Source of the DNA: Patescibacteria group bacterium
GTDB lineage: Bacteria > Patescibacteriota > Minisyncoccia > Phycocordibacterales > UBA9973
Reading direction: 5' to 3'
NCBI GenBank assembly: GCA_040390725.1
Contig: JAZJXT010000004.1
Span: 30,026 to 94,025, forward strand
DNA: 64,000 nucleotides
Part shown: positions 15,836 through 61,000 of the stretch, one piece after another
Layout: each line of letters opens with the position of its first letter
Position numbering within the stretch: position 1 is the stretch's first letter
Translations under genes and position numbers: made by a program
The notes under the pieces: generated by a model
The model's input: the letters and a program-made list of their open reading frames with translations, nothing else
Databases searched by the model: none
What the model was told of the DNA's origin: nothing

Positions 15836-16378
15836 ATGTCAGAAGAAAATAAAAACCAAATAAATATCGATAACATATCTGGCGATGTAGTAGTTTCAGA
15901 GTATCAATCAGGGGGCATAACAGCTCATTCTGTGTATATCACTCAAGGAGTTAATAAAAGGGTATTAACCAATAAAATTGATAATATTATTGAGGAATTA
16001 AAAAAAAGTCCAGTTGCAGCGTACAGATTACATTATGCACCAGGCGACGATGAAGTTAATAAACTTACAAATGAACTCAACTACATATTATCTAGTTGTG
16101 GTTGGAAAAAGATGAATCCAGTACAACGTCTTGGTGGCCATAACTTACCAGTAGGAATTACAATTTTTATGTTAAAGCCAGAAGAACCTCTGACCACCCT
16201 TGTTAACTTGTTATGGAATGCGTTAGGTCATCAAGGTGTTGAGGGAAATGTTTTAGTTGATGTAAAAAATATTTTTACTATTCATGGATGGCCACCAGTA
16301 GAATTACCTATAGGAATGAATGGCGCAGTGATTTTTATAGGTTCTAATCCTGATCAATTACATAATTTCCATGCCTAA
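15836..16378 (+). CDS. Hypothetical protein (180 aa) sharing the N-terminal module with the preceding ORF
   Basis: INIDNISGDVVVSEYQSGGITA aligns with the upstream ORF, giving the consensus INIxN[VI]xGD[IV][IV]xSExQ[ST]GG[FI]T. Unrecognised ~150-aa soluble domain. The 3' end overlaps the ATP-grasp start by 8 nt. Confidence 0.5.
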   Translation: MSEENKNQINIDNISGDVVVSEYQSGGITAHSVYITQGVNKRVLTNKIDNIIEELKKSPVAAYRLHYAPGDDEVNKLTNELNYILSSCGWKKMNPVQRLGGHNLPVGITIFMLKPEEPLTTLVNLLWNALGHQGVEGNVLVDVKNIFTIHGWPPVELPIGMNGAVIFIGSNPDQLHNFHA

Positions 16379-23804: not shown

Positions 23805-25457
23805 ATGGAAAATAAAAATTGCCAAAATTGCAAGAAAGATTTTACGATAAATAAAATTGAACTTACTCAATACGCAAAAATTAACTTAGTTATTCCTGAT
23901 ATTTGTGTTCCATGTCGATGGAAACATCATATGGCTTTTTGGCCGTTTGGTAAATTTAGACAAGGGAAGTCTGATCTTTCAGGGGAAAGACTCATAACAG
24001 TTCTTCCAAATAATGCTAGATATCCTATTTTTACATCAAAAGAATGGTGGAGTGATGCTTGGGATCCGGCATCCTACAGTCAGGAATATGATGAAAATCG
24101 ATCTTTTTTTGATCAACTTAAAGAATTACAAGAGAAAGTTCCTCGTCCGCATCAGCAGGGAGCTCAAAATACTGATTGTGACTGGTGCGACGATGCATGG
24201 GAATCAAAAAATTGTTACCTTTCTCGTTCGACGAAAAAAGCTGAAAATTTACTCTACGGATATCGCGCTATTGAAGTAAAAGATTCAATAGACATATCGC
24301 ATGTTTTTACTTTAGATCAATGCTATGATTGCACATACTGCTTTAGATCTTATAATTTACTTTTTTCAAAAAATTGCCGAGATTGTATGGAGAGCGCTTT
24401 TCTTTTTGATTGTCGTAATTCGTCAAATTGTTTTATGTGTTGGAACTTGCGAGGCAAATCGTATTGCATAGAAAATATGCAATACACAAAAGAAGAATAT
24501 CAAGAAAAAATGAAGTCGATTAATCTCGGTTCGTATTCCGAGCTTGAAAGATTTAAAAATCGTTATGCGGAAATCTTGAAAGAAAATGCCGTTCATAGGG
24601 AAAATTTTAATGTTAAAACATATAATTCCACCGGAACCTATATGTCTGATTGCAACAACTGCACAAATGTATTTTTTTGGGAGGATTCAGAAAATTGTAT
24701 AAATTGTTTGCGCGGACTGAAAACCAAAGACTCAATCGACATGACTGGTTGTTGGTATGTTGAAGTTTCCGGAAACAATAGTTGTTGTACTAATTCTTAC
24801 GACCTTAAATATTCTATTTGGTGTGATGGAGCTAAGTACTCAGAATATTGCGATCAATGCCTCGAGGTGGATTATTGTTTCGGTTGCATCGGCTTGCGCA
24901 AGAAAAAATATTGCATTTTAAATAAACAATATACCAAAGCAGAATACGAAGTTCTTATAGAAAAAATTATTTCTGACATGAAGGCTCGCGGTGAATACGG
25001 AAAATTTCCGCCATATTCTTTGGGCTTATGTCCATACAATTTTTCTACCGGAGCAATTTATTTTCCGGAAGTTACCAAAGAATACATAAAAGAAAGAGGA
25101 GGGTATTGGGAAGAAGATAACGGGCAACAGGCGGAGGGATTGCCCACCTCCGAGCTCCCGGATTCTATTTCTGATGTGGATTCTTCGATTACCAGACAGG
25201 CTCTCGTCTGTCCCGTAACCGGCTGGAGGTACAATATAGCCGAAGCCGAATTAGCATTTTTGAAACGAAAAAATATTGCATTACCTAGGTTGCATTTCGA
25301 TGTACGTACTAAAAAACGATTACTTACTATTAGTCAAACAAAAAGTGAACCTTATGTCTGCACCTACTGTTCGAAAAATATTATCGCTTATTATCCAAAA
25401 GATTGGGGATACAAGAAAATAGCCTGCGAAGAATGTTATAAAAAGGAAGTTTATTAA
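23805..25457 (+). CDS. Cysteine-rich protein with N- and C-terminal zinc-ribbon knuckles and internal C-x2-C repeats; paralog of 58738..60435
   Basis: N-terminal NCQNCKKDF...CVPCRW; C-terminal CTYCSK...CEECYKKEVY; two internal repeated halves each ending K(S/K)YCIxNxQYTKxEYE. Start is 2 nt after the purL stop. Confidence 0.6.
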   Translation: MENKNCQNCKKDFTINKIELTQYAKINLVIPDICVPCRWKHHMAFWPFGKFRQGKSDLSGERLITVLPNNARYPIFTSKEWWSDAWDPASYSQEYDENRSFFDQLKELQEKVPRPHQQGAQNTDCDWCDDAWESKNCYLSRSTKKAENLLYGYRAIEVKDSIDISHVFTLDQCYDCTYCFRSYNLLFSKNCRDCMESAFLFDCRNSSNCFMCWNLRGKSYCIENMQYTKEEYQEKMKSINLGSYSELERFKNRYAEILKENAVHRENFNVKTYNSTGTYMSDCNNCTNVFFWEDSENCINCLRGLKTKDSIDMTGCWYVEVSGNNSCCTNSYDLKYSIWCDGAKYSEYCDQCLEVDYCFGCIGLRKKKYCILNKQYTKAEYEVLIEKIISDMKARGEYGKFPPYSLGLCPYNFSTGAIYFPEVTKEYIKERGGYWEEDNGQQAEGLPTSELPDSISDVDSSITRQALVCPVTGWRYNIAEAELAFLKRKNIALPRLHFDVRTKKRLLTISQTKSEPYVCTYCSKNIIAYYPKDWGYKKIACEECYKKEVY

Positions 25458-52087: not shown

Positions 52088-54268
52088 TTATTCTAAAAGA
52101 TTCTTAAGAACATCCTCGGGTACTTCGCGAACTTTTGGTGCTGGCGGAGGTGTCGGCGTGGGCGTTGGTCCTGATATTGGTCTTGGTGTCGGCTCAGGCA
52201 CTGATTCAGTTTTCTCGGAAATCAAATCTTTTAATTTATTCATTTCATCAATACTTGCTGAGCGGTCGCCATGTAAAATGACAGGTGGTTGAGAAATTTT
52301 TAAATCACTCAAAGACATAGGTGGAGGTGTCGGCTTTTCTACTATTGAAATAGCCTCGGGTGAAATAGAATTCGATTCAGAAATTTTATTTTCTGATAAA
52401 GTTTTATTTAAAATATCTCGAAGCGCTAAATTTTCTTTTCTAGGCTCTTTTTTAAATATAACAGGTTTTGCAAATGGAGTCTTTATAGAAAAATTTGGCA
52501 AAAGTTTAGAAATATTTTTTAAAGGTGAAGATACTGACGGCTTTATGGTTGGTCTTACCGGTGGTCTAATATTTTTATCAAAAGTTTTTTTAATTTCTAA
52601 AAATGGACTAGGCTTCTTTGGGGCTTGAGGGGCTTTAACCGGTGAAGCATTAACCGATACAGACCTCTCGGTATTTGTAGGAGCGCCTTGATTGCCACCG
52701 CCACCTTGACTCTTGTTTTCAAATTCAATACCTAAATCCGCCAATGGTCTGTAAAATTTTGTTTCATCTTGCTTGATTTGATTCATGGATCCCGAAAGAG
52801 GCTTCAATTCACCTGACTTCATTTTTGCTATACAATCCTTGCAATACACGGGCCTGCCTGGCTGCGGCATAAATGGTACAAAAGTTTCTTTTTTACAAAT
52901 AGAACAAACTGCGGGGAATTTTTCCATACTGCCAGAATCATTGTCGCCACCTACCATCATGCCACTCCAATTATTTATTTCCCTTTCTACTTCTTCTCTG
53001 GATCTGCAATACAAAGCGCGAGAAGACCTGATAACTTCTTCTTCTATTTCTTTAATGCCTGACTTCACCAAGGGTGGCAAAGTCTTTGCAGAAAATGGCC
53101 GGCTCGTAATACCGCCTATCATTAATTTTAAATAAATTCTATAGTTCGGTAAGTTCACGATATCTTGCGGAATAAATTCCGGCTCAAATTCTTTTTCCAA
53201 AAATTCCGCATCATCGGCGCCGACACGAAATACAATCATGGTACCCACGTTACCGAAAACAGAGTCGCGCACATTTGTACTTTCTTTAGTGACAAGCTGA
53301 GCAGTGTATTGGTGAGCAACTGTTAAATTAAGACGATATTTTCGAGCCTCGGAAAGAATAGATGCGAAAGAATCTGTAACGAAATTTTGGAATTCGTCCA
53401 CGTAAAGATAAAAATCTTTACGCTCTTCTTCAGGAATACGAACGCGCTCCATCGCCGCCAGCTGAATCTTTGTAATAATCATACCTCCGAGTAATGCAGA
53501 GTTATCTTCACCGATACGCCCCTTGGAAACATTCACTAGAAAAATCTTTCCTTCATTCATAACATCAAAAACATTTATTGTGCTTTTTGATTGGCCTACA
53601 ACATTTCGAATTATAGAAGTTGAAAGAAATTGTCCGACTTTATTTTGAATCGGAGCAATAGCTTCATTTCTAAATTTATCCTGCCAAGCTTCATATTCAT
53701 GAATCCAAAAAGCCTTGATGACGGGATCTTTTAAATTACTAATTATTTTTTGACGATAATCTTTATCCACTAGCATTCTGGGTATTCCCAAAAGAGTGGT
53801 ATTTGGGGTGTCGAGCAATGCTAAAATAGCGTTGTTCAAAATATATTCCATTCTCGCAGACCAAGCATTCGCCCAAATTTTTGTAAATATTCCCATGAGA
53901 CCGGAAGCCACCAAATGTTTATATTTTGGATCAAGTAATTCCAAAACATTAAAACCAATATGATAATCAACATCTGCAGGATTAAAATAAACAACGTCTT
54001 TCATGCGGTGCGGAGGAATAGCCGAAAGAATACTTTCTACGAGTTCTCCGTGAGGGTCAACCACACAAACACCATCACCATTTATGACATTTTGAATAAC
54101 CATATTGAACATCAAGACAGATTTACCGGTACCGGATTTACCGAGCAGATACATATGCTGGCGCCTGTCTTTTCGCTTGATACCGAAAAGAGTTTTTTTG
54201 TCGCGATAGGTCGTCTGACCTATATATGTCATATCCTTATTGGCTGGTAAATCTTTAAATTCCATCAA
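52088..54268 (-). CDS. P-loop NTPase of the HerA/FtsK/TraD-VirD4 superfamily with C-terminal zinc ribbon and long Pro/Ser-rich low-complexity tail
   Basis: Walker A HMYLLGKSGTGKS, Walker B YLYVDEFQNF, zinc ribbon CSICKK...CKDC, then ~250 aa of PxP-rich tail. No N-terminal TM. Exact family not resolvable by eye. Confidence 0.45.
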   Translation of the reverse strand: MMEFKDLPANKDMTYIGQTTYRDKKTLFGIKRKDRRQHMYLLGKSGTGKSVLMFNMVIQNVINGDGVCVVDPHGELVESILSAIPPHRMKDVVYFNPADVDYHIGFNVLELLDPKYKHLVASGLMGIFTKIWANAWSARMEYILNNAILALLDTPNTTLLGIPRMLVDKDYRQKIISNLKDPVIKAFWIHEYEAWQDKFRNEAIAPIQNKVGQFLSTSIIRNVVGQSKSTINVFDVMNEGKIFLVNVSKGRIGEDNSALLGGMIITKIQLAAMERVRIPEEERKDFYLYVDEFQNFVTDSFASILSEARKYRLNLTVAHQYTAQLVTKESTNVRDSVFGNVGTMIVFRVGADDAEFLEKEFEPEFIPQDIVNLPNYRIYLKLMIGGITSRPFSAKTLPPLVKSGIKEIEEEVIRSSRALYCRSREEVEREINNWSGMMVGGDNDSGSMEKFPAVCSICKKETFVPFMPQPGRPVYCKDCIAKMKSGELKPLSGSMNQIKQDETKFYRPLADLGIEFENKSQGGGGNQGAPTNTERSVSVNASPVKAPQAPKKPSPFLEIKKTFDKNIRPPVRPTIKPSVSSPLKNISKLLPNFSIKTPFAKPVIFKKEPRKENLALRDILNKTLSENKISESNSISPEAISIVEKPTPPPMSLSDLKISQPPVILHGDRSASIDEMNKLKDLISEKTESVPEPTPRPISGPTPTPTPPPAPKVREVPEDVLKNLLE

Positions 54269-54288
54269 AACATTATACCAAAAAAAAT

Positions 54289-56151
54289 TTAGTTTTGTCC
54301 ACCTTCAGGTGGAGTTTCCGGGTTTGGATTCTCTTGTGCCGGCTGTTCAGCAGAAGCCTTTTGCACAGCTTCGCCAATTTTAGACATTTCACTGGAAAGC
54401 TCTTCGGTGGCTTTTTTAACCGCTTCCATGTCACTGCCATCTTTTAATCCGCGAAGCATTGTGATTTTTGCATTCACGCCGTCTTTGAGTTCAGCAGGAA
54501 TTTTCGCTTCATTATCCTTGATTGCTTTTTCAGCTGTGAAGATAACCATATCAGCAGTATTTTTCACATCGGCATTTTCTTTTTTCTTTTTATCTTCATC
54601 AGCGTGAATTTCCGCGTCTTGTTGCATTTTTTTAATGTCTTCTTCTTTGAGTCCGGAGCTGGCTTCGATTCTGATAGTTTGTGTTTTACCTGAAGCTTTA
54701 TCCATAGCTTTCACATTCAAGATTCCGTTTGCATCCACATCAAAAGTCACTTCAATCTGAGGCATACCTCGAGGCGCTGGCGGAACTCCGTCTAAAATAA
54801 ATCGTCCCAGACTTTTATTGTCAGATGCCATAGGGCGTTCACCTTGCACTATGTGTATTTCCACACTTGTTTGATTGTCAGCAGCGGTAGAAAATGTTTG
54901 CGATTTTGATGAAGGAATAGTTGTATTTCTTTCCACTAATTTTGTAGCGACACCACCCAATGTTTCAATACCTAAAGATAATGGAATAACATCAAGAAGC
55001 AAGACATCACGCACATCACCTTGCAACACTCCAGCTTGCACCGCAGCGCCGAGAGCGACAACTTCATCGGGATTAATAGAAAGATTTGGAACTTTACAAA
55101 AAACTTTTTTCACTTCTTCCACGATTTTCGGCATTCTCGTTTGTCCTCCGACCATTATTATTTCATTCATTTCTTCCATTTTAAAACCGGAAGCAGTCAT
55201 CGCGCGTTTTGTTATTTCTATCGAACGAGCGATATATTCATCAGCGATTGATTCGAGTTGCGCGCGAGTCATTTTCAAGAGCAAGTGTTGCGGACCCTCA
55301 GCAGTAGAAGTAATAAACGGAATGTTTATTTCAGTTTCGATAGCTGTGGAAAGTTCGATTTTTGCTTTTTCAGCAGCTTCATCGAGACGTTGCAATGCTA
55401 GCTTGTCATTTCTTACATCTACACCGGAAGTCTTTTTATATTCTTCCGCAATCCAAGCGATAATCTTGTGGTCGATGTCGCGACCTCCTAGGTGACTGTC
55501 CCCATCTGTAGATTTTACTTCGATAACATCATCACCAATTTCTAAAACGGAAACGTCGAAAGTTCCTCCACCGAAGTCATACACAACTACTTTTTCATTT
55601 TTCTTTTTATTAAAACCATAAGCGAGCGCTGCAGCTGTCGGCTCATTGATAATTCTTTTTACGTCGAGGCCTGCTATCGCTCCTGCGTCTTTTGTAGCTT
55701 TTCTTTGCGCATCGTTGAAATACGCCGGCACAGTGATGATGGCTTCAGTTATTTTCTCGCCGATTTTTGCTTCGACATCACTTTTTATTTTTCCTAAAAT
55801 CATCGCGGAAATTTCTTCCGGGCGCATCCATTTGTCGCCTATCATTACTTCCACTCCGCCATTTGCTGATTTCTGAATTTTAAAAGAAGCATTTTTTAAA
55901 TCTTTCTGCACTTCCGGATCTTCGAAATTGTGACCCATAAAACGCTTGATGCCATACACAGTATTTTCCGGATTCGTCACCGCTTGTCTTTTTGCAAGCA
56001 AGCCTACCAGCCTGTCGCCATTTTTTGCAACAGAAACTACCGAAGGAGTCGTCCTCGCTCCCTCCGCATTCTCAATAATCTTCGGCTGTCCGCTTTCGAT
56101 TATCGCCACCGCACTATTTGTTGTACCCAAATCTATTCCTATTATTTTCAT
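54289..56151 (-). CDS. dnaK: Chaperone protein DnaK (Hsp70)
   Basis: [21 protein letters not shown] and full-length Hsp70 architecture with an acidic C-terminal tail. Confidence 0.95.
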
Positions 56152-56163
56152 ATATTTTTTTTA

Positions 56164-56598
56164 TTAATTACTAATAATTTGAAAACCTAATTCTTTAACT
56201 TTTGAATCAAATAATTCTGCCCGCTTTGCAACATCAATTTTTTTAGTATCTTCAGTATAAGAAATAATTTCTTTATTTGTATACAAATCTACAACAAAAT
56301 ATGAGTTAATTTCCAGAGTGGAAAATCCACCCAAATACAAGCAAGCCTTAAGGCCTTCATCGTATCTATACTGGGGCTTACTAGCTATAAACATAGACTC
56401 GAAACTTTTTGTATTATTTTTTTCTGATTCCGAAGCATATTTTTTAATACCTAACTCTTGACATTTAACAATATTTTGACTTAAAGAAACTTCTCTATCC
56501 TTTTTAGGTAAATAAGAAACAAAATAATAACCGACAGCTAATGCTATTATTATTAAAGAAATACAGACTAACAAACTAGCGAAATTTATTTTTTTCAT
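56164..56598 (-). CDS. Hypothetical membrane-anchored/lipoprotein-like protein (144 aa)
   Basis: N-terminal signal-like helix (ASLLVCISLIIIALA). Stop lies 12 nt upstream of the dnaK start. Confidence 0.4.
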   Translation of the reverse strand: MKKINFASLLVCISLIIIALAVGYYFVSYLPKKDREVSLSQNIVKCQELGIKKYASESEKNNTKSFESMFIASKPQYRYDEGLKACLYLGGFSTLEINSYFVVDLYTNKEIISYTEDTKKIDVAKRAELFDSKVKELGFQIISN

Positions 56599-56610
56599 AT
56601 ATTTATATTT

Positions 56611-56988
56611 TTATAAATCTTTTAATAACTTATCGATTACTTCTACTGATGTATTTTTTGATACTGCCATTGCGGTATTAAAAAGTATTCTTAGAGATTC
56701 CTTGTATGAAGAATCTATTACTGTATTTACTTGCAAAATTACTTCATTTGGATTAGTTGCCTGAATGGTAAAAACATAATTATTATTATTTTGTCCAAGT
56801 GATGGTGGTATAGATCTGTTAATAATCATTGCCATTTGTTGTATCTGTAATGTAATAGTGAAAGACCTGTCGTCCTCTTGTTTTATCCAACGCACAAGAT
56901 TAGAATTTGCTGATTTCCATGGAATTTTTTCTTCCTTGGATTTTTCAATAAGTTTTTTAATTTGTTCTAAAATTTTTGTATTATCCAT
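56611..56988 (-). CDS. Hypothetical protein (125 aa)
   Basis: Soluble. Middle gene of the tightly packed three-gene set upstream of dnaK. Confidence 0.4.
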   Translation of the reverse strand: MDNTKILEQIKKLIEKSKEEKIPWKSANSNLVRWIKQEDDRSFTITLQIQQMAMIINRSIPPSLGQNNNNYVFTIQATNPNEVILQVNTVIDSSYKESLRILFNTAMAVSKNTSVEVIDKLLKDL

Positions 56989-57001
56989 ATATTTATATAT
57001 T

Positions 57002-57454
57002 TTACTTATTAATAGATTCCTTTTTTAAGCGACCTCTTAACTCTTGTAAGCTACCAATCAATTCCCTAAAAGGAGAAGCGAGTGTAAAACATATCTGAGA
57101 ACTTGTCGTTTCTACATCATCAAGTGTGTTAAATGCAACACCCATGTCCGCTAAATCCTTTTCAAGGATATCAATAATCTCTTTATAATTTATATTTGTT
57201 TTAAGTTGTCCAATTATAGTTTTCACTCTTCCATTTATAGTGGCAATTTGATTATTAGCATCCATCCAAGCAACATCTTTTTTTAATGTACAACTATTAC
57301 AAATATCTGAAATTTCCTCTTCCGTTGATCTTAGTTGTACTTCTTGTTTAGCTTCTCGGGCTGCTAACTTAGATCTATAGGCTTGCCAAAAAGCACCGGC
57401 AGAAAGCAAAATTCCAATATATACTAATATTCTATCAAATGTGAAATAATCCAT
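57002..57454 (-). CDS. Hypothetical protein with N-terminal TM helix (150 aa)
   Basis: First gene of the set. Preceded by a near-consensus promoter overlapped by a perfect palindrome. Confidence 0.4.
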   Translation of the reverse strand: MDYFTFDRILVYIGILLSAGAFWQAYRSKLAAREAKQEVQLRSTEEEISDICNSCTLKKDVAWMDANNQIATINGRVKTIIGQLKTNINYKEIIDILEKDLADMGVAFNTLDDVETTSSQICFTLASPFRELIGSLQELRGRLKKESINK

Positions 57455-57460
57455 GACTTA

Positions 57461-57495
57461 ATTATATACAAACCTAAATACTTTTGCAAGTATTT
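57461..57495 (-). promoter_or_regulatory. Promoter TTGCAA-N17-TATAAT (minus strand) whose -35 is embedded in a perfect 8+4+8 palindrome AAATACTTTTGCAAGTATTT (candidate operator)
   Basis: The minus strand reads TTGCAAaagtatttaggtttgtaTATAATtaagtcATG. Palindrome at 57476-57495. A second 5-bp inverted repeat ATACT...AGTAT follows at ~57509-57530. Confidence 0.4.
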
Positions 57496-57569
57496 CGCGA
57501 CCGCAGAATACTTGTCAAAAAGAGTATATATTATGGGGTATGGGTATGTCAACAGTTTTCCACAAGAGC

Positions 57570-57599
57570 TTGCAAACGTCTTAACGTTTATGATATACT
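57570..57599 (+). promoter_or_regulatory. Promoter-like TTGCAA-N18-TATACT on plus strand upstream of a GC-rich structured segment
   Basis: TTGCAA at 57570-57575 and TATACT at 57594-57599. The spacer contains the palindrome AACGT-CTTA-ACGTT. Confidence 0.3.
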
Positions 57600-57605
57600 A
57601 CATCT

Positions 57606-57700
57606 ACTGAAAGGCGGAAAATCGGAGTGCCGCCGGCCCACGTGGCTATGGAGGGAAGTTCCGTCCTCCCAGAGAAAAACACCCGCAAGGGTGTTTTTCT
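57606..57700 (+). ncRNA. Candidate small structured RNA (~95 nt), GC-rich, ending in a bidirectional terminator
   Basis: Hairpins GGCGG(aaaatcggagtg)CCGCC and GGAGG(gaagttccgt)CCTCC, the palindrome CCACGTGG, then ACACCC-GCAA-GGGTGT-TTTTTCT. Strongly GC-enriched relative to flanks. The 86-aa ORF drawn over it is probably spurious. Confidence 0.3.
57675..57700. terminator. Bidirectional rho-independent terminator
   Basis: The ACACCC GCAA GGGTGT hairpin has a U/T-run on both strands (TTTTTCT on plus; TTTTTCTCT on minus, downstream of the 57705..58112 stop). Confidence 0.5.
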
Positions 57701-57704
57701 ATTT

Positions 57705-58112
57705 CTATTTGATGAGTTTACCCAACTTCTTGGCTGACCTGTAAAATCCAGTTTTTATATAATAATGATTTGCAGATTGTTTAACTATTTCTAAAACTAA
57801 AACAACTCCCTTCTCCTTATCTTCTACTATTTCAAATAACAGAAAAATGTTATCATCTTTATCTTTATTATCGACAATTTTAAAATTATTAGAATTTAAA
57901 ACATTAAATATATCAGAGAAAAATTCCAATAAATCCTCTTCGGAATAATTATCCTGCTTTCTTTTTTCTACTATATGTTTTAAAGCTCTATATTTGATTT
58001 TAATTACTATGTCAGTTTCAAAAATAACTAATTCCTCCTGATAGTCTTTTATATGACAACCATTTTCCATCGGATAATATATTTTTATCAGGTTGTGAAT
58101 AATATTTAACAT
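57705..58112 (-). CDS. Hypothetical protein (135 aa)
   Basis: Acidic, Lys-rich soluble protein with no recognisable domain. Divergent from the PaaX-like regulator gene. Confidence 0.4.
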   Translation of the reverse strand: MLNIIHNLIKIYYPMENGCHIKDYQEELVIFETDIVIKIKYRALKHIVEKRKQDNYSEEDLLEFFSDIFNVLNSNNFKIVDNKDKDDNIFLLFEIVEDKEKGVVLVLEIVKQSANHYYIKTGFYRSAKKLGKLIK

Positions 58113-58143
58113 AAACTTAAGTATAACAAATTAAAAATTAAAT

Positions 58144-58737
58144 ATGCTATCATTTAACCTAAATTGCAAAAAACAAATTTTATTGTATACTCAAAAAATG
58201 AATAAGAATGACTATTCCAAGAAAATATTAAAGATTTTAGGACAAAAAAGCGCTATTTCAGTGCCAGAAATTAATAAACACCTCACCCCTGACCCCTCTC
58301 CGGAGTACCAGAGAGGGGAAAAATACGCCATTACACGCTCTTTAAAGGGCTTGAAAGAAGCGGGGTTTATAGAACAAGTGCATTCTGGACAGAATAACTA
58401 CGCCCGACTGACAAAAGAAGGAAAAAAGAAAATGCATAGTTTGAAACTCGAAAATGAAACGACTTTGGTAAATACTTCTTGGGATGGATTTTGGAGAATT
58501 ATTTTACTCGACTTGCCGGAAAATAGAAAAAGTGAACGCGAAAGTTTGCGTTATTTGTTAAAAAAAGCGGGATTCGTCTGCCTGAAAAATTCCGCTTGGA
58601 TTTCCCCCTACCCTTTTGAACACCTTTTCATAAATATAAAAAAAGACCTAGGCCTGACTTCCGAGATGATGATAATAGTCACGCAATTCGTAGACGAAGA
58701 AACCAAAAAAATATTGTTTGAAACTTTTGGAAAGTAA
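58144..58737 (+). CDS. PaaX-family winged-helix transcriptional regulator
   Basis: N-terminal wHTH (ISVPEINKHL...YAITRSLKGLKEAGFIEQ) and a C-terminal PaaX_C-like segment (SWDGFWRIILLDLPENRKSERESLRYLLKKAGFVCLKNSAWISPYP). Confidence 0.55.
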   Translation: MLSFNLNCKKQILLYTQKMNKNDYSKKILKILGQKSAISVPEINKHLTPDPSPEYQRGEKYAITRSLKGLKEAGFIEQVHSGQNNYARLTKEGKKKMHSLKLENETTLVNTSWDGFWRIILLDLPENRKSERESLRYLLKKAGFVCLKNSAWISPYPFEHLFINIKKDLGLTSEMMIIVTQFVDEETKKILFETFGK

Positions 58738-60435
58738 TCAATACATCTCCTGCTGGTAACACTGCTCGCAGTAAAGCACATATTTCTTTTGATCTTCAGG
58801 AGAATAAGATGTAGTAATTTCCTTTGAGCATTTTGCGCATTTGATAGGCCATAAATTAAATGTATTTCTTTTATTCATTCTATTTTGATGCCGGCAATTA
58901 AAACATTGCGCCGGAAGCGCTAACCTATTTTTCTTGTAAAAAACAATTTCCCTATTTATTAATTTAAAATTCTTCTCGCAACTCTCACAAGTTAAAACTT
59001 CTTTCAGTAAATCATCGTTATAATCATCGGGATTTTTTGGCAATTTTGAAAATTCAATAGTACCCTGTCCTTTAGTGCTCGGTATATTATCTTTCCATAA
59101 AAACCCTTTGTTCTGTGCCTCTTCTTTTGTCAAAGGCATATGTTCATTGACGATGGATTCGTTGTAAGCAAAAGGGCTCATAAAACTCGGAAAGAAATTC
59201 CCCCATTCGCCATTCTTATTCATATGCTCAATTAATTTACTGACCAGAATTTCGTATTCTTGTTTTGAATACTGTTTGTTGAAAATGCAATATGATTTCT
59301 TGCGCAAACCACAACAGCCGAATAAATTATTGGAACCGTAGCAATTGCTGGAATAAAAAACATCATGCGAGTCAACCGCCAACTCTGAGCCGATAATTCT
59401 ACTACTGCCAAGGCAAGTAAGAGCTTGATAACTTTCTTCTACCCCATTACCGGAAAAAGAACAATCATATGAGTTCACGGCTTTTGCAATAATAAAACAA
59501 TATTTGGAATTCTCACCGCCTTTTATATCAAAAGAATTTAAAATATTATGAGAATTATAAATGTGATTGCCGGAAACTTTATTATTGTGCGAACCAAAAA
59601 ATGCGCGCTGGGGAACTTTTGTCCGTAAATTATCCCGTTCTTTTAAAATATAATCTATTGATGATTTTTCAGTTAAAGGATATTTCAGTAAAAAATCTTT
59701 ATACTCTTCCCTTGTGACAGGCTTATTGAAAATATAATAAGACTTATTTACTTGCCCTACGCAACCGATGCAATTTAGACAATTCCGACAATCAAAAAGC
59801 CCTATGCTGTCTATACAACTTTCACACTCTTGGGAATAAAAAAGTTTAGTAGACTCCAGGCAGTCAATGCATTCATAGCAGGATTCGCATTTATAAAGAA
59901 AAATATTATCCACCGACTCACGAGAATTCCAAATAATATATCCATAATCACAATCTTCATCTTCGATACAACCAAAAATTAAATAACAATTTTTTGCTCC
60001 ATAAGCAATGTTTGCATATTCGCAATTTTCACTTTTTGTTTGCATTAAAGCCATATGCGGAACAACATTAAAAAGCTCAGCCAGCTGCTGAAAAAATGAT
60101 TTTGTAAAATCAAAATCTCTGCCATAACTCATCGGCTCCCAATCATCACCCCACCATTCTTCACTGGAGTAAACAGGAAAAAGCGTATCTGGACTATACA
60201 TTGAAACAATCATCTTTCCGCTTTTATCTGATTTCCTTTTATAAAGAGTTTTAAAATTTCTAAAACAAATTCGTAAGCGTTGTCTGCATTCAGGGCAAAT
60301 TTCTGGCACGGGAACCTTCATTCTTTCATAAAATCCAAAATCATCTTTTGTGATTTCAAAATCTTTTTTACAGTTCTGGCAATTTATCCCGCCTTGGCGT
60401 GGAGTTTTATTCTGACTGCTTATATTCATAAACAT
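58738..60435 (-). CDS. Cysteine-rich protein; paralog of 23805..25457 (N- and C-terminal zinc-ribbon knuckles with internal C-x2-C repeats)
   Basis: N-terminal INCQNCKKDF...CPECRQ, C-terminal IKCAKCSK...YCEQCYQQEMY, internal repeats (KCESCYECIDC, ECESCIDS, DCRNCLNCIGC, KKSYCIFNKQYSKQEYE). Start overlaps the grpE 3' end by 29 nt. Confidence 0.6.
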   Translation of the reverse strand: MFMNISSQNKTPRQGGINCQNCKKDFEITKDDFGFYERMKVPVPEICPECRQRLRICFRNFKTLYKRKSDKSGKMIVSMYSPDTLFPVYSSEEWWGDDWEPMSYGRDFDFTKSFFQQLAELFNVVPHMALMQTKSENCEYANIAYGAKNCYLIFGCIEDEDCDYGYIIWNSRESVDNIFLYKCESCYECIDCLESTKLFYSQECESCIDSIGLFDCRNCLNCIGCVGQVNKSYYIFNKPVTREEYKDFLLKYPLTEKSSIDYILKERDNLRTKVPQRAFFGSHNNKVSGNHIYNSHNILNSFDIKGGENSKYCFIIAKAVNSYDCSFSGNGVEESYQALTCLGSSRIIGSELAVDSHDVFYSSNCYGSNNLFGCCGLRKKSYCIFNKQYSKQEYEILVSKLIEHMNKNGEWGNFFPSFMSPFAYNESIVNEHMPLTKEEAQNKGFLWKDNIPSTKGQGTIEFSKLPKNPDDYNDDLLKEVLTCESCEKNFKLINREIVFYKKNRLALPAQCFNCRHQNRMNKRNTFNLWPIKCAKCSKEITTSYSPEDQKKYVLYCEQCYQQEMY

Positions 60436-61000
60436 TTACTCGCGCGGGGCGGAGAACGCGATCGCCTAGTTTGTAGCCTTTTTGAATGACATTGGAAATT
60501 TTGTGGTCATTTTCTTTTTTATCTGTTTGCATCATCTCAATAGACTCGTGCATATTTGGGTCAAAAGTTTCGCCCGCTTCACCTATTCCCTTTACGCCGT
60601 ATTCTTCAAAAACATTATTCATTTGCGCGTAAATATATTCCACGCCCTTACGCCAATTCTCATCTACTTTTTCCCAAGCTTGCTTGTTTGCAAATGCCAT
60701 ATTAAAACTATCCATCACGCCTAAAAATCGGGTCAAGATTCTCTCACGCATTGATTCCGACAACATTGATTTTCTGTCTTCCTCTTGTTTTTTGTAATTC
60801 ACAAAATCCGCGCGTTCTTTCTGCCAGCCGACTAAAAATTCTTCTTTTTCTTTTTTGCACGCCTTCAAATCAGCCCTAAATTTCTTTAAAGTTTTCTTTA
60901 AATCTTCCTCGCCGTCTTCATTGAATTCAAATTCAAGAACTTCTGTGTCGTCTTCTTTCGGCTCAGTATTTTCTACTTTTTTATTTTCTTCGTCTTGCAT
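60407..61000 (-). CDS. grpE: Nucleotide exchange factor GrpE
   Basis: Acidic N-terminal region, coiled coil, and GrpE C-terminal beta-domain (VIQKGYKLGDRVLRPARV). Confidence 0.85.
   Translation of the reverse strand: MQDEENKKVENTEPKEDDTEVLEFEFNEDGEEDLKKTLKKFRADLKACKKEKEEFLVGWQKERADFVNYKKQEEDRKSMLSESMRERILTRFLGVMDSFNMAFANKQAWEKVDENWRKGVEYIYAQMNNVFEEYGVKGIGEAGETFDPNMHESIEMMQTDKKENDHKISNVIQKGYKLGDRVLRPARVNVYEYKQSE

Follow-up and report, generated by a model that had tools for sequence, protein, structure and literature searches.

Bacteria that lack sigma-32 most commonly control dnaK and groE through a repressor and an inverted repeat, HrcA and CIRCE (controlling inverted repeat of chaperone expression), the classical operon being hrcA-grpE-dnaK-dnaJ. 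A second arrangement, found in Streptomyces, Mycobacterium, Helicobacter and Campylobacter, uses HspR, a protein of the MerR family whose gene closes the dnaK operon. HspR is a dedicated, dnaK-linked and autoregulated repressor with a small regulon, and its inverted repeat, HAIR (HspR-associated inverted repeat; CTTGAGT-N7-ACTCAAG), lies over the dnaK promoter. Single repressors such as CtsR and RheA each govern a small set of chaperone or protease genes, and some of these repressors sense heat themselves. Here we describe the dnaK control region in 64,000 nt of low-GC sequence belonging to a Candidate Phyla Radiation (CPR) bacterium (Patescibacteria group bacterium, contig JAZJXT010000004.1, positions 30,026 to 94,025; hereafter the window). 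It holds a 36-bp dyad-symmetric sequence at the dnaK promoters and a divergently transcribed gene for a short PaaX-like protein, and on comparative sequence evidence we consider it likely that this is a Nomurabacteria-type dnaK control locus with a dedicated PaaX-like winged helix-turn-helix (wHTH) repressor and its operator.

The locus resembles HspR-HAIR in that the regulator gene is linked to dnaK and an inverted repeat lies at the dnaK promoter. It differs in that the regulator is PaaX-like and divergently transcribed and the dyad is unrelated to HAIR, of which the window has one match with three mismatches (position 15927, below the 2.2 expected by chance) and none near dnaK; nor was a MerR-type gene present at the locus. 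Unlike CIRCE (TTAGCACTC-N9-GAGTGCTAA), the dyad is contiguous, of unrelated sequence and not built as 9+9+9. An earlier interpretation made from the letters of the window (the sequence-only reading) had described dnaK as free of CIRCE, and this was borne out: the window has no match at up to three mismatches, and at up to four the window and 211 related loci (212 sequences, ~2.2 Mb) yielded intragenic chance matches only. No hrcA-like gene adjoins grpE or dnaK, rpsI lying directly upstream of grpE here and in the relatives, and tblastn with an approximate B. subtilis HrcA query gave no match in the window or the loci, which is weak evidence and covers those sequences only. CtsR and RheA belong to other protein families and have other operators, and no CtsR heptad repeats were present near dnaK. 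What places the locus in the same functional class, as far as sequence can tell, is a conserved dyad over a chaperone promoter together with a co-occurring, linked regulator gene. The best-supported reading is a functional analogue of HspR-HAIR or HrcA-CIRCE that would draw on a different protein family and a new operator. A search of the literature covering PaaX, dnaK, heat shock and these groups of bacteria turned up no account of such a system.

The operator and its promoters

The dyad (57483..57518, centre 57500/57501) reads TTGACAAGTATTCTGCG-GT-CGCGAAATACTTGCAAA on the strand of dnaK (54289..56151, minus strand; Pfam HSP70, E 1e-239), the conserved target gene of the operator and promoter region. 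It follows a consensus, TTGACAAGTATTTCGCG-RY-CGCGAAATACTTGTCAA, whose core is TTCGYG-RY-CRCGAA, and has 30 of 34 half-site matches, against no more than 21 elsewhere in the 64 kb and no more than 23 in 20 shuffles. For comparison we took from species-representative genomes the 80 loci with the closest DnaK (identity up to 90%), every one of which is titled Nomurabacteria, Paceibacterota, Minisyncoccia or Patescibacteria, and the proteins of the window were placed by tblastn on these and on 120 metagenome loci. The dyad was found in 186 of the 212 sequences. Exactly one strong copy occupies the spacer, usually 80–350 bp long in genome loci, in all 58 of the 58 genome loci that have paaX beside dnaK, and no locus has a second strong copy within 10 kb of dnaK. 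Neither a position-weight scan of the window and 80 loci nor a pattern scan of metagenomes revealed a second target. The latter scan, with a 39-bit IUPAC version of the dyad against all metagenome contigs, produced at least 120 matches, and 111 of the 120 listed adjoin paaX and/or dnaK; the other nine lie on unrelated high-GC or eukaryote-like contigs and were set aside as chance matches. Among 124 distinct 36-mers the positions C5/G32, G15/C22 and G17/C20 are invariant. GT and AC are about equally frequent as the central dinucleotide, as would be expected if the orientation of the site were irrelevant.

Two promoters on the minus strand are associated with the dyad. P1 (TTGACA-N18-TATACT, 57523..57552; 11 of 12 positions matched) lies directly upstream, and its transcript is predicted to start in or at the left arm. 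P2 (TTGCAA-N17-TATAAT, 57461..57489), which the sequence-only reading had correctly pointed out, has its -35 box within the right arm and a gap of 6 nt between the end of its -10 box and the ATG of sp150, the first gene of the unit, in what we call a leaderless-type arrangement. Across contexts P1 takes the form TTGACA-N17/18-TATACT before the dyad on the dnaK strand, while the -35 box of P2 is TTGCAA or TTGCTA within the right arm (~60% of contexts), followed by N17 and TATAAT. When matches of at least 10/12 were counted in 150 unique operator contexts, P1 was present in 122, P2 in 93, both in 66 and neither in one. A reverse-strand promoter on the paaX side, with its -35 box in the left arm and a -10 box ending 5–8 nt (mostly 6) before the paaX ATG, occurs in 90 of the 150.

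Leaderless-type promoters are the rule in the genome to which the window belongs. A -10-like box stands 4–9 nt before the start codon in 21 of the 59 genes of the window, compared with 5.6% at random positions, and in 14 of those 21 the gap is exactly 6 nt. The set includes sp150, orf135, paaX and the ATPase gene downstream of dnaK. The boxes are TATAAT-like and often TG-extended, for example at the starts 54265, 57454, 58112, 58198, 4434 (5456-side), 10130 and 13281.

The closest relative found, locus L210 (regulator 89% identical), shares with the window only the island formed by P1, the dyad and P2, which is ~95% identical, both flanks being unalignable. The dyad likewise stays beside the dnaK-side promoters where genes have been inserted (the window, L210, L061, L203, L208, L112 and others). 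To judge from gene order, the control region follows the chaperone genes and has no fixed position. On one metagenome contig (L192, 254–1383) the operator stands between a paaX-like gene and grpE, with dnaK after grpE.

The sequence-only reading had placed the -35 box of P2 in a perfect palindrome. That sequence, AAATACTTTTGCAAGTATTT (57476–57495), consists instead of two 8-nt arms around a 4-nt spacer. Its outer arm is an extra half-site copy (AAGTATTT on the minus strand, 57476..57483), which with the right arm of the dyad forms an 8+4+8 inverted repeat; it is missing from L210 and is therefore not part of the conserved element. The promoter does lie in a symmetric site, the 36-bp dyad, but the palindrome first described was not the conserved one. 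Two further observations concern this element. In one locus only (L021, 10136–10166) dnaJ is preceded, at ~40 nt, by a weaker palindrome (TTTTTCGCGAGCGCGAAAAA) with the CGCG core in common. Another (L063, 1–3550) has the operator and apparently no paaX, presumably because the contig is chimeric, as its high-GC, foreign-looking upstream sequence suggests.

The PaaX-like regulator

The regulator gene (58198..58737, plus strand, divergent from dnaK) encodes 179 aa comprising a wHTH and a Cas2-like PaaX_M domain, with no PaaX_C. Its start had been put at 58144 in the sequence-only reading; a leaderless-type promoter of its own (TTGCAA-N16-TATACT-N6-ATG, 58164–58191) immediately before 58198 fixes it at the latter position, in agreement with the deposited annotation. 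There the regulator and the small proteins discussed below are entered as hypothetical proteins of a Patescibacteria group bacterium metagenome-assembled genome.

Membership of the PaaX family, proposed earlier, was confirmed by Pfam (PaaX_M, PF20803: E 2.7e-19, 69.5 bits against a cut-off of 24 bits, profile positions 2–79 of 83). The wHTH is indicated by weak Pfam wHTH matches at residues 25–96 and by the AlphaFold2 (AF2) model, whose N-terminal 80 residues (predicted local distance difference test, pLDDT, 68–90) match MarR/ArsR/PaaX wHTH folds. In the PDB the model is closest in fold to E. coli PaaX [8a39] and next to MarR/ArsR proteins, though it is a weak model (pLDDT 64), and a search of the sequence against solved structures gave no match. 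The protein stops at residue 179, immediately beyond PaaX_M, and no match to PaaX_C appeared in Pfam. The score against TIGR02277, the equivalog of true PaaX, is 40.1 bits and does not reach the cut-off of 264.55.

PaaX is a phenylacetyl-CoA-responsive, autoregulated repressor of divergent promoters which competes with RNA polymerase, and the E. coli PaaX site has been reported as TGATTC-N27-GAATCA (PMC9493321). Like the PaaX proteins of E. coli and Pseudomonas the regulator has an N-terminal wHTH and the Cas2-like PaaX_M domain, the fold match to 8a39 being in keeping with this. Unlike them it has 179 rather than ~305–316 aa and lacks PaaX_C, the domain assigned to effector binding; no paa genes are nearby, its neighbours being grpE, dnaK and Cys-rich genes; and the site is a contiguous 36-bp dyad. 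Given its size, the missing PaaX_C, the TIGR02277 score, the absence of paa genes and the different site, the effector is unlikely to be phenylacetyl-CoA. By these measures the regulator is PaaX-like in architecture and not a PaaX orthologue.

Homologs of the regulator number 2007, the best 120 being 68–100% identical and all but three of these 74–100%. The regulator gene, the dyad and dnaK travel together in ~180 independent loci and are jointly absent in more distant relatives, and no other conserved regulator gene was found in the neighbourhood in either the genome or the metagenome loci. The suggestion that the neighbouring PaaX-like protein might be the regulator gains considerably from this joint presence and absence with the site and dnaK, and the protein is the obvious candidate. 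Furthermore, the predicted recognition helix and wing (Y43–L52 and Y68–K78) are nearly invariant in 30 homologs, and this constancy of the DNA-reading residues matches the invariance of the dyad.

We propose that the PaaX-like protein binds the single 36-bp dyad, probably as a dimer. Since the dyad is immediately downstream of P1 and over the -35 box of P2, the bound protein would silence both promoters. The opposite arm, in typical relatives, also provides the -35 box for the leaderless promoter of the regulator itself, and autoregulation would follow. Proteotoxic stress would presumably release the repressor and switch the unit on; one possible signal is titration by unfolded proteins through DnaK, as for HspR. 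The unit so controlled would be the leaderless-type sp150-sp125-sp144-dnaK, probably continuing into the gene for a VirD4-like ATPase.

The genes between grpE and dnaK

The sequence-only reading regarded the stretch between grpE and dnaK as a single accessory insertion of 4.2 kb. The open reading frames (ORFs) which it listed for dnaK, sp144, sp125, sp150, orf135, the Cys-rich protein and grpE all exist where it placed them, on the minus strand, and Pfam upholds its GrpE and HSP70 assignments; the comparison with related genomes leads to another view of the block. In Nomurabacteria-like genomes, whose DnaK proteins are ~72–93% identical, the shared order is rpoA - rplQ - rplM - rpsI - grpE - (0–4 Cys-rich paralogs) - divergent paaX-like gene - dnaK - VirD4/TraD-like ATPase - (Cys-rich paralogs) - second ATPase paralog - dnaJ. 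The Cys-rich genes, the PaaX-like gene and the operator are thus normal for the whole clade. In more distant Paceibacteria (Taylorbacteria, Zambryskibacteria and others; L066–L080) grpE and dnaK are adjacent, without the paaX-like gene and without the dyad. Because the two chaperone genes are split by Cys-rich and PaaX-like genes clade-wide, the arrangement is not an insertion peculiar to this genome. The accessory label is right for sp150-sp125, sp144, orf135 and the GC-rich spacer, and wrong for the remainder.

On this comparison the stretch has three layers. The clade-wide layer consists of grpE, 0–4 Cys-rich paralogs, the divergent PaaX-like gene, the operator and dnaK. A second layer, the sp150-sp125 pair, recurs in a few genomes and always stands directly after the operator, and a third (sp144, orf135 and the GC-rich stretch) is nearly strain-specific. 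By the same comparison the window has gained three small genes that part dnaK from the control region, and on the other side orf135, which parts the operator from the regulator gene.

Of the clade-wide genes, grpE (60407..61000, minus strand; Pfam GrpE, E 3e-37) is downstream of rpsI as in related genomes. The Cys-rich protein (58738..60435, minus strand, 565 aa) has a C-terminal CxxC-x17-CxxC zinc ribbon, and its gene overlaps the end of grpE by 29 nt, as had been noticed before; the 0–4 paralogs in relatives often overlap grpE similarly. It was rightly called a paralog, its relative in the window lying at 23805–25457 (32% identity, E 2e-94). The VirD4/TraD-like ATPase gene (52088–54265, minus strand), which also encodes a CxxC-x17-CxxC zinc ribbon, is always 3' of dnaK (loci L001–L200). 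Right after the dnaK stop codon it has its own extended -10 promoter (54265–54301: TGgTATAAT, 6 nt, ATG), with a -35 box, TGGACA, within the 3' end of dnaK, so that the ATPase could be expressed alone as well as by read-through from dnaK. Arrays of 0–4 Cys-rich paralogs (~560 aa, with a C-terminal zinc ribbon like that of the ATPase) flank the locus, and a second ATPase paralog precedes dnaJ. The linkage of the ATPase, its Cys-rich partners and the chaperone genes is conserved.

Between the three small genes and dnaK the packing is tight, as described earlier, with spacers of 13 nt (sp150/sp125), 12 nt (sp125/sp144) and 12 nt (sp144/dnaK). Together with the lack of a convincing terminator between them and the presence of conserved promoters only upstream of sp150, this makes co-transcription with dnaK the simplest reading, as had been supposed. 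Sp150 (57002..57454, minus strand), the product of the first gene of the transcription unit, is a single-pass membrane protein with an N-terminal transmembrane helix and a helical, coiled-coil-like domain; in a profile search of the PDB, coiled coils were the only matches. Its homologs form ~15 representative clusters among 1.84 billion representative proteins, and those of L203, L205, L208, L061 and L210 (153–184 aa; blastp E 1e-11 to 1e-17) occupy a like position. Sp125 (56611..56988, minus strand) is a soluble alpha/beta protein. Its gene follows that for an sp150 homolog in every context retrieved (L061, L203/L204, L205–L207, L208/L209 and L210), and the pair is always on the dnaK side of the operator and promoters, with dnaK downstream wherever the contig reaches that far (L061, L203, L208 and L209). 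Seven clusters among 5.8 billion protein clusters contain sp125 relatives, including the window's own, the other six being 54–57% identical. The AF2 model of sp125 (pLDDT 81, predicted template modelling score 0.72) had no significant fold match in the PDB or a viral structure library (best E 0.07 and 0.012, template modelling score <0.45), and its profile matched no solved structure.

Sp144 (56164..56598, minus strand; its gene is the last before dnaK) has an N-terminal membrane anchor and a small domain with two conserved Cys. It had been described as lipoprotein-like, but the Cys in question lies inside a long hydrophobic helix (L-L-V-C), without a lipobox, and is absent in the homologs. 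Only one homolog cluster was found (41% identity), and this homolog and its tandem paralog adjoin a Peptidase_S49/NfeD-type protease, not dnaK. An anchored protein of 152 aa in L112 was considered as a relative and discarded for want of BLAST support. Pfam, NCBIfam, PHROGs and PADLOC returned nothing significant for sp144, sp125, sp150 or orf135. Two of the three small proteins are membrane-anchored and none has an assignable function, and the envelope/stress module into which the sequence-only reading had grouped them with dnaK was a guess.

The strain-specific orf135 (57705..58112, minus strand; 135 aa), between paaX and the operator, has its own promoter (TATACT-N7-ATG) and terminator. No homolog occurs in any of the loci, and gene prediction on an independent Logan contig also lists it; L210 has an unrelated ORF of 151 aa in the same slot. 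The adjoining GC-rich spacer (57604..57704) had been put forward as a candidate small RNA. It does fold well (z -3.5 and -4.0), but largely owing to the bidirectional terminator hairpin of orf135 (57673–57700); it cannot be aligned with L210 and matches no Rfam family. Rfam likewise had no family for the leader elements, the searches having been made at the gathering score in the window and eight relatives and at E <=10 on 57400–58200.

The distance from the centre of the operator to the dnaK ATG has a median of 125 nt and exceeds 400 nt in 12 of 137 contexts; in the window it is 1,350 nt. Insertion is evidently tolerated on both sides of the control region, and genes arriving downstream would come under the dnaK promoters. 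Other passengers between operator and dnaK include an LMW-phosphatase/ArsC-like protein (139–140 aa; L015 and L115), a P-loop kinase-like protein (172 aa; L119), a conserved protein of 92 aa (L047 and L134), small membrane proteins and, once, grpE. On the other side, the slot between paaX and the operator contains, in several relatives, Y1 (IS200/RAYT-like) transposase genes and a hairpin resembling repetitive extragenic palindromes (REP), GAAGGACGGTCCTTC (L082 10165–10785; L205 4640–5335; L062 8557–9216; L119 1331–1345). A hairpin of the window, GGAGGACGGAACTTCCCTCC (57650–57669), is loosely like it and unique there.

A GC-rich structured element of ~75 nt, roughly ..GCACACATAAWTTTCTGCTGAAAATTTGCTC..GGCCCGTCGGCC..GGC.., is not present in the window, but relatives have it repeatedly in the 5' leaders of both dnaK and dnaJ. 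It was seen in L006 (9860–9935 and ~19700), in the dnaK leaders of L014, L023 and L026 and upstream of dnaJ in L189, L063, L156, L125, L113 and L124. This element, which has no Rfam family, could be a small mobile repeat or else a new RNA motif of chaperone leaders.

Alternative readings and significance

Several observations weigh against a dedicated dnaK repressor of this kind. The AF2 model of the regulator has a poor C-terminal half (pLDDT ~40–58). In the window paaX is ~680 bp from the operator and its own promoter is without the dyad, so that autoregulation appears to have been lost here. The regulator could also be a local autoregulator sensing something unrelated to protein folding. 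The operator was seen at dnaK only, and as no groEL falls within the 211 loci, groESL was outside the comparison. In DNA this rich in A+T promoter-like hexamers are by themselves not above chance (29 found, 25.6 expected), and we regard P1 and P2 as supported because they are conserved across loci, not by the hexamers alone. For P1 that conservation is itself due in part to coding constraint, its TTGACAT overlapping the first codons of paaX in typical genomes. In the window and L210, P1 is nearly unchanged though paaX no longer abuts it.

The dyad might be the operator of another, unlinked transcription factor, the PaaX-like gene being only a conserved neighbour which regulates itself or something else. 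Such a factor would be in keeping with the dyad-less paaX promoter of the window and with the genes lying between paaX and the dyad there and in L210, L082, L088, L105, L119, L135 and L153. We nevertheless think it unlikely, as presence and absence of paaX and the dyad coincide perfectly over ~190 loci, the dyad overlaps the leaderless promoter of the regulator in 90 of the 150 contexts, the DNA-reading residues and the dyad are both highly conserved, and no other conserved regulator gene is nearby. A role of the inverted repeat at the RNA level, as a hairpin of the P1 transcript (thermometer, attenuator or processing site) and not as a protein-binding site in the DNA, strikes us as very improbable. 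The P1 transcript would indeed hold the whole repeat, with a possible stem of ~15 bp, and GC-rich structured elements are common in the dnaK and dnaJ leaders of relatives. Substitutions among the distinct 36-mers, however, are one-sided and break pairing in 465 cases and compensatory in 44; it is the sequence of the half-sites which is conserved and not their pairing, a pattern that points to two half-sites read by a protein dimer rather than to an RNA stem. Moreover, no U-tract follows the repeat on either strand, no start codon lies within 35 nt of the repeat, no ribosome-binding site is sequestered by it, and P2 starts transcription downstream of it.

Should the PaaX-like protein bind the dyad, it might yet activate dnaK or act as a dual regulator, given that the -35 region of P2 falls under the site, a placement known from class II activators too, and that P2 has an imperfect -35 box (TTGCAA or TTGCTA). 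The dedicated regulators of dnaK in other bacteria, HrcA, HspR and CtsR, are all repressors. Relative to P1, moreover, the site spans about +1 to +36, the classic position for a repressor, and PaaX, the characterised member of the family, is a repressor that competes with RNA polymerase (PMC9493321); activation seems quite unlikely to us. Hardly credible, lastly, is the notion that the whole grpE-dnaK stretch is one horizontally acquired accessory island or mobile element. One could cite for it the G+C content of 0.22–0.30 over orf135 and the small genes, the Y1-transposase genes and REP-like hairpins in the corresponding slot of relatives, and the variable content of the paaX-operator-dnaK interval between genomes. 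The Cys-rich gene, the paaX-like gene and the operator, however, keep a constant order in almost all Nomurabacteria-like loci, no integrase, repeats or transfer RNA gene occurs at the flanks of the block in the window, and only individual small genes vary, so that the idea already fails for the block as a whole.

Returning to a dedicated PaaX-like repressor of dnaK, we would advance a broader proposal, to which we give somewhat less than an even chance. Truncated PaaX-like proteins, consisting of a wHTH and a Cas2-like domain, may be an unrecognised family of heat-shock repressors which, in the Nomurabacteria-like branch, took over control of dnaK from HrcA-type systems by way of a new operator, an analogue of CIRCE. 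The dnaK leader would then serve as a landing pad giving genes for small membrane proteins, such as sp150-sp125, stress-inducible expression, and these proteins might act with DnaK at the membrane.

As the CPR bacteria are uncultured, regulation in this group is almost unexplored, and a pair defined by sequence, with ~124 natural variants of its operator, is among the first concrete and testable circuits for it. The dyad can be used as a marker of dnaK promoters in metagenomes, and the leaderless promoter pattern helps to correct gene starts in these genomes. If the interpretation is true, a further route of dnaK control would stand beside sigma-32, HrcA, HspR, CtsR and RheA, and the short PaaX_M proteins now labelled "PaaX" or "hypothetical" would gain a function unrelated to phenylacetate.

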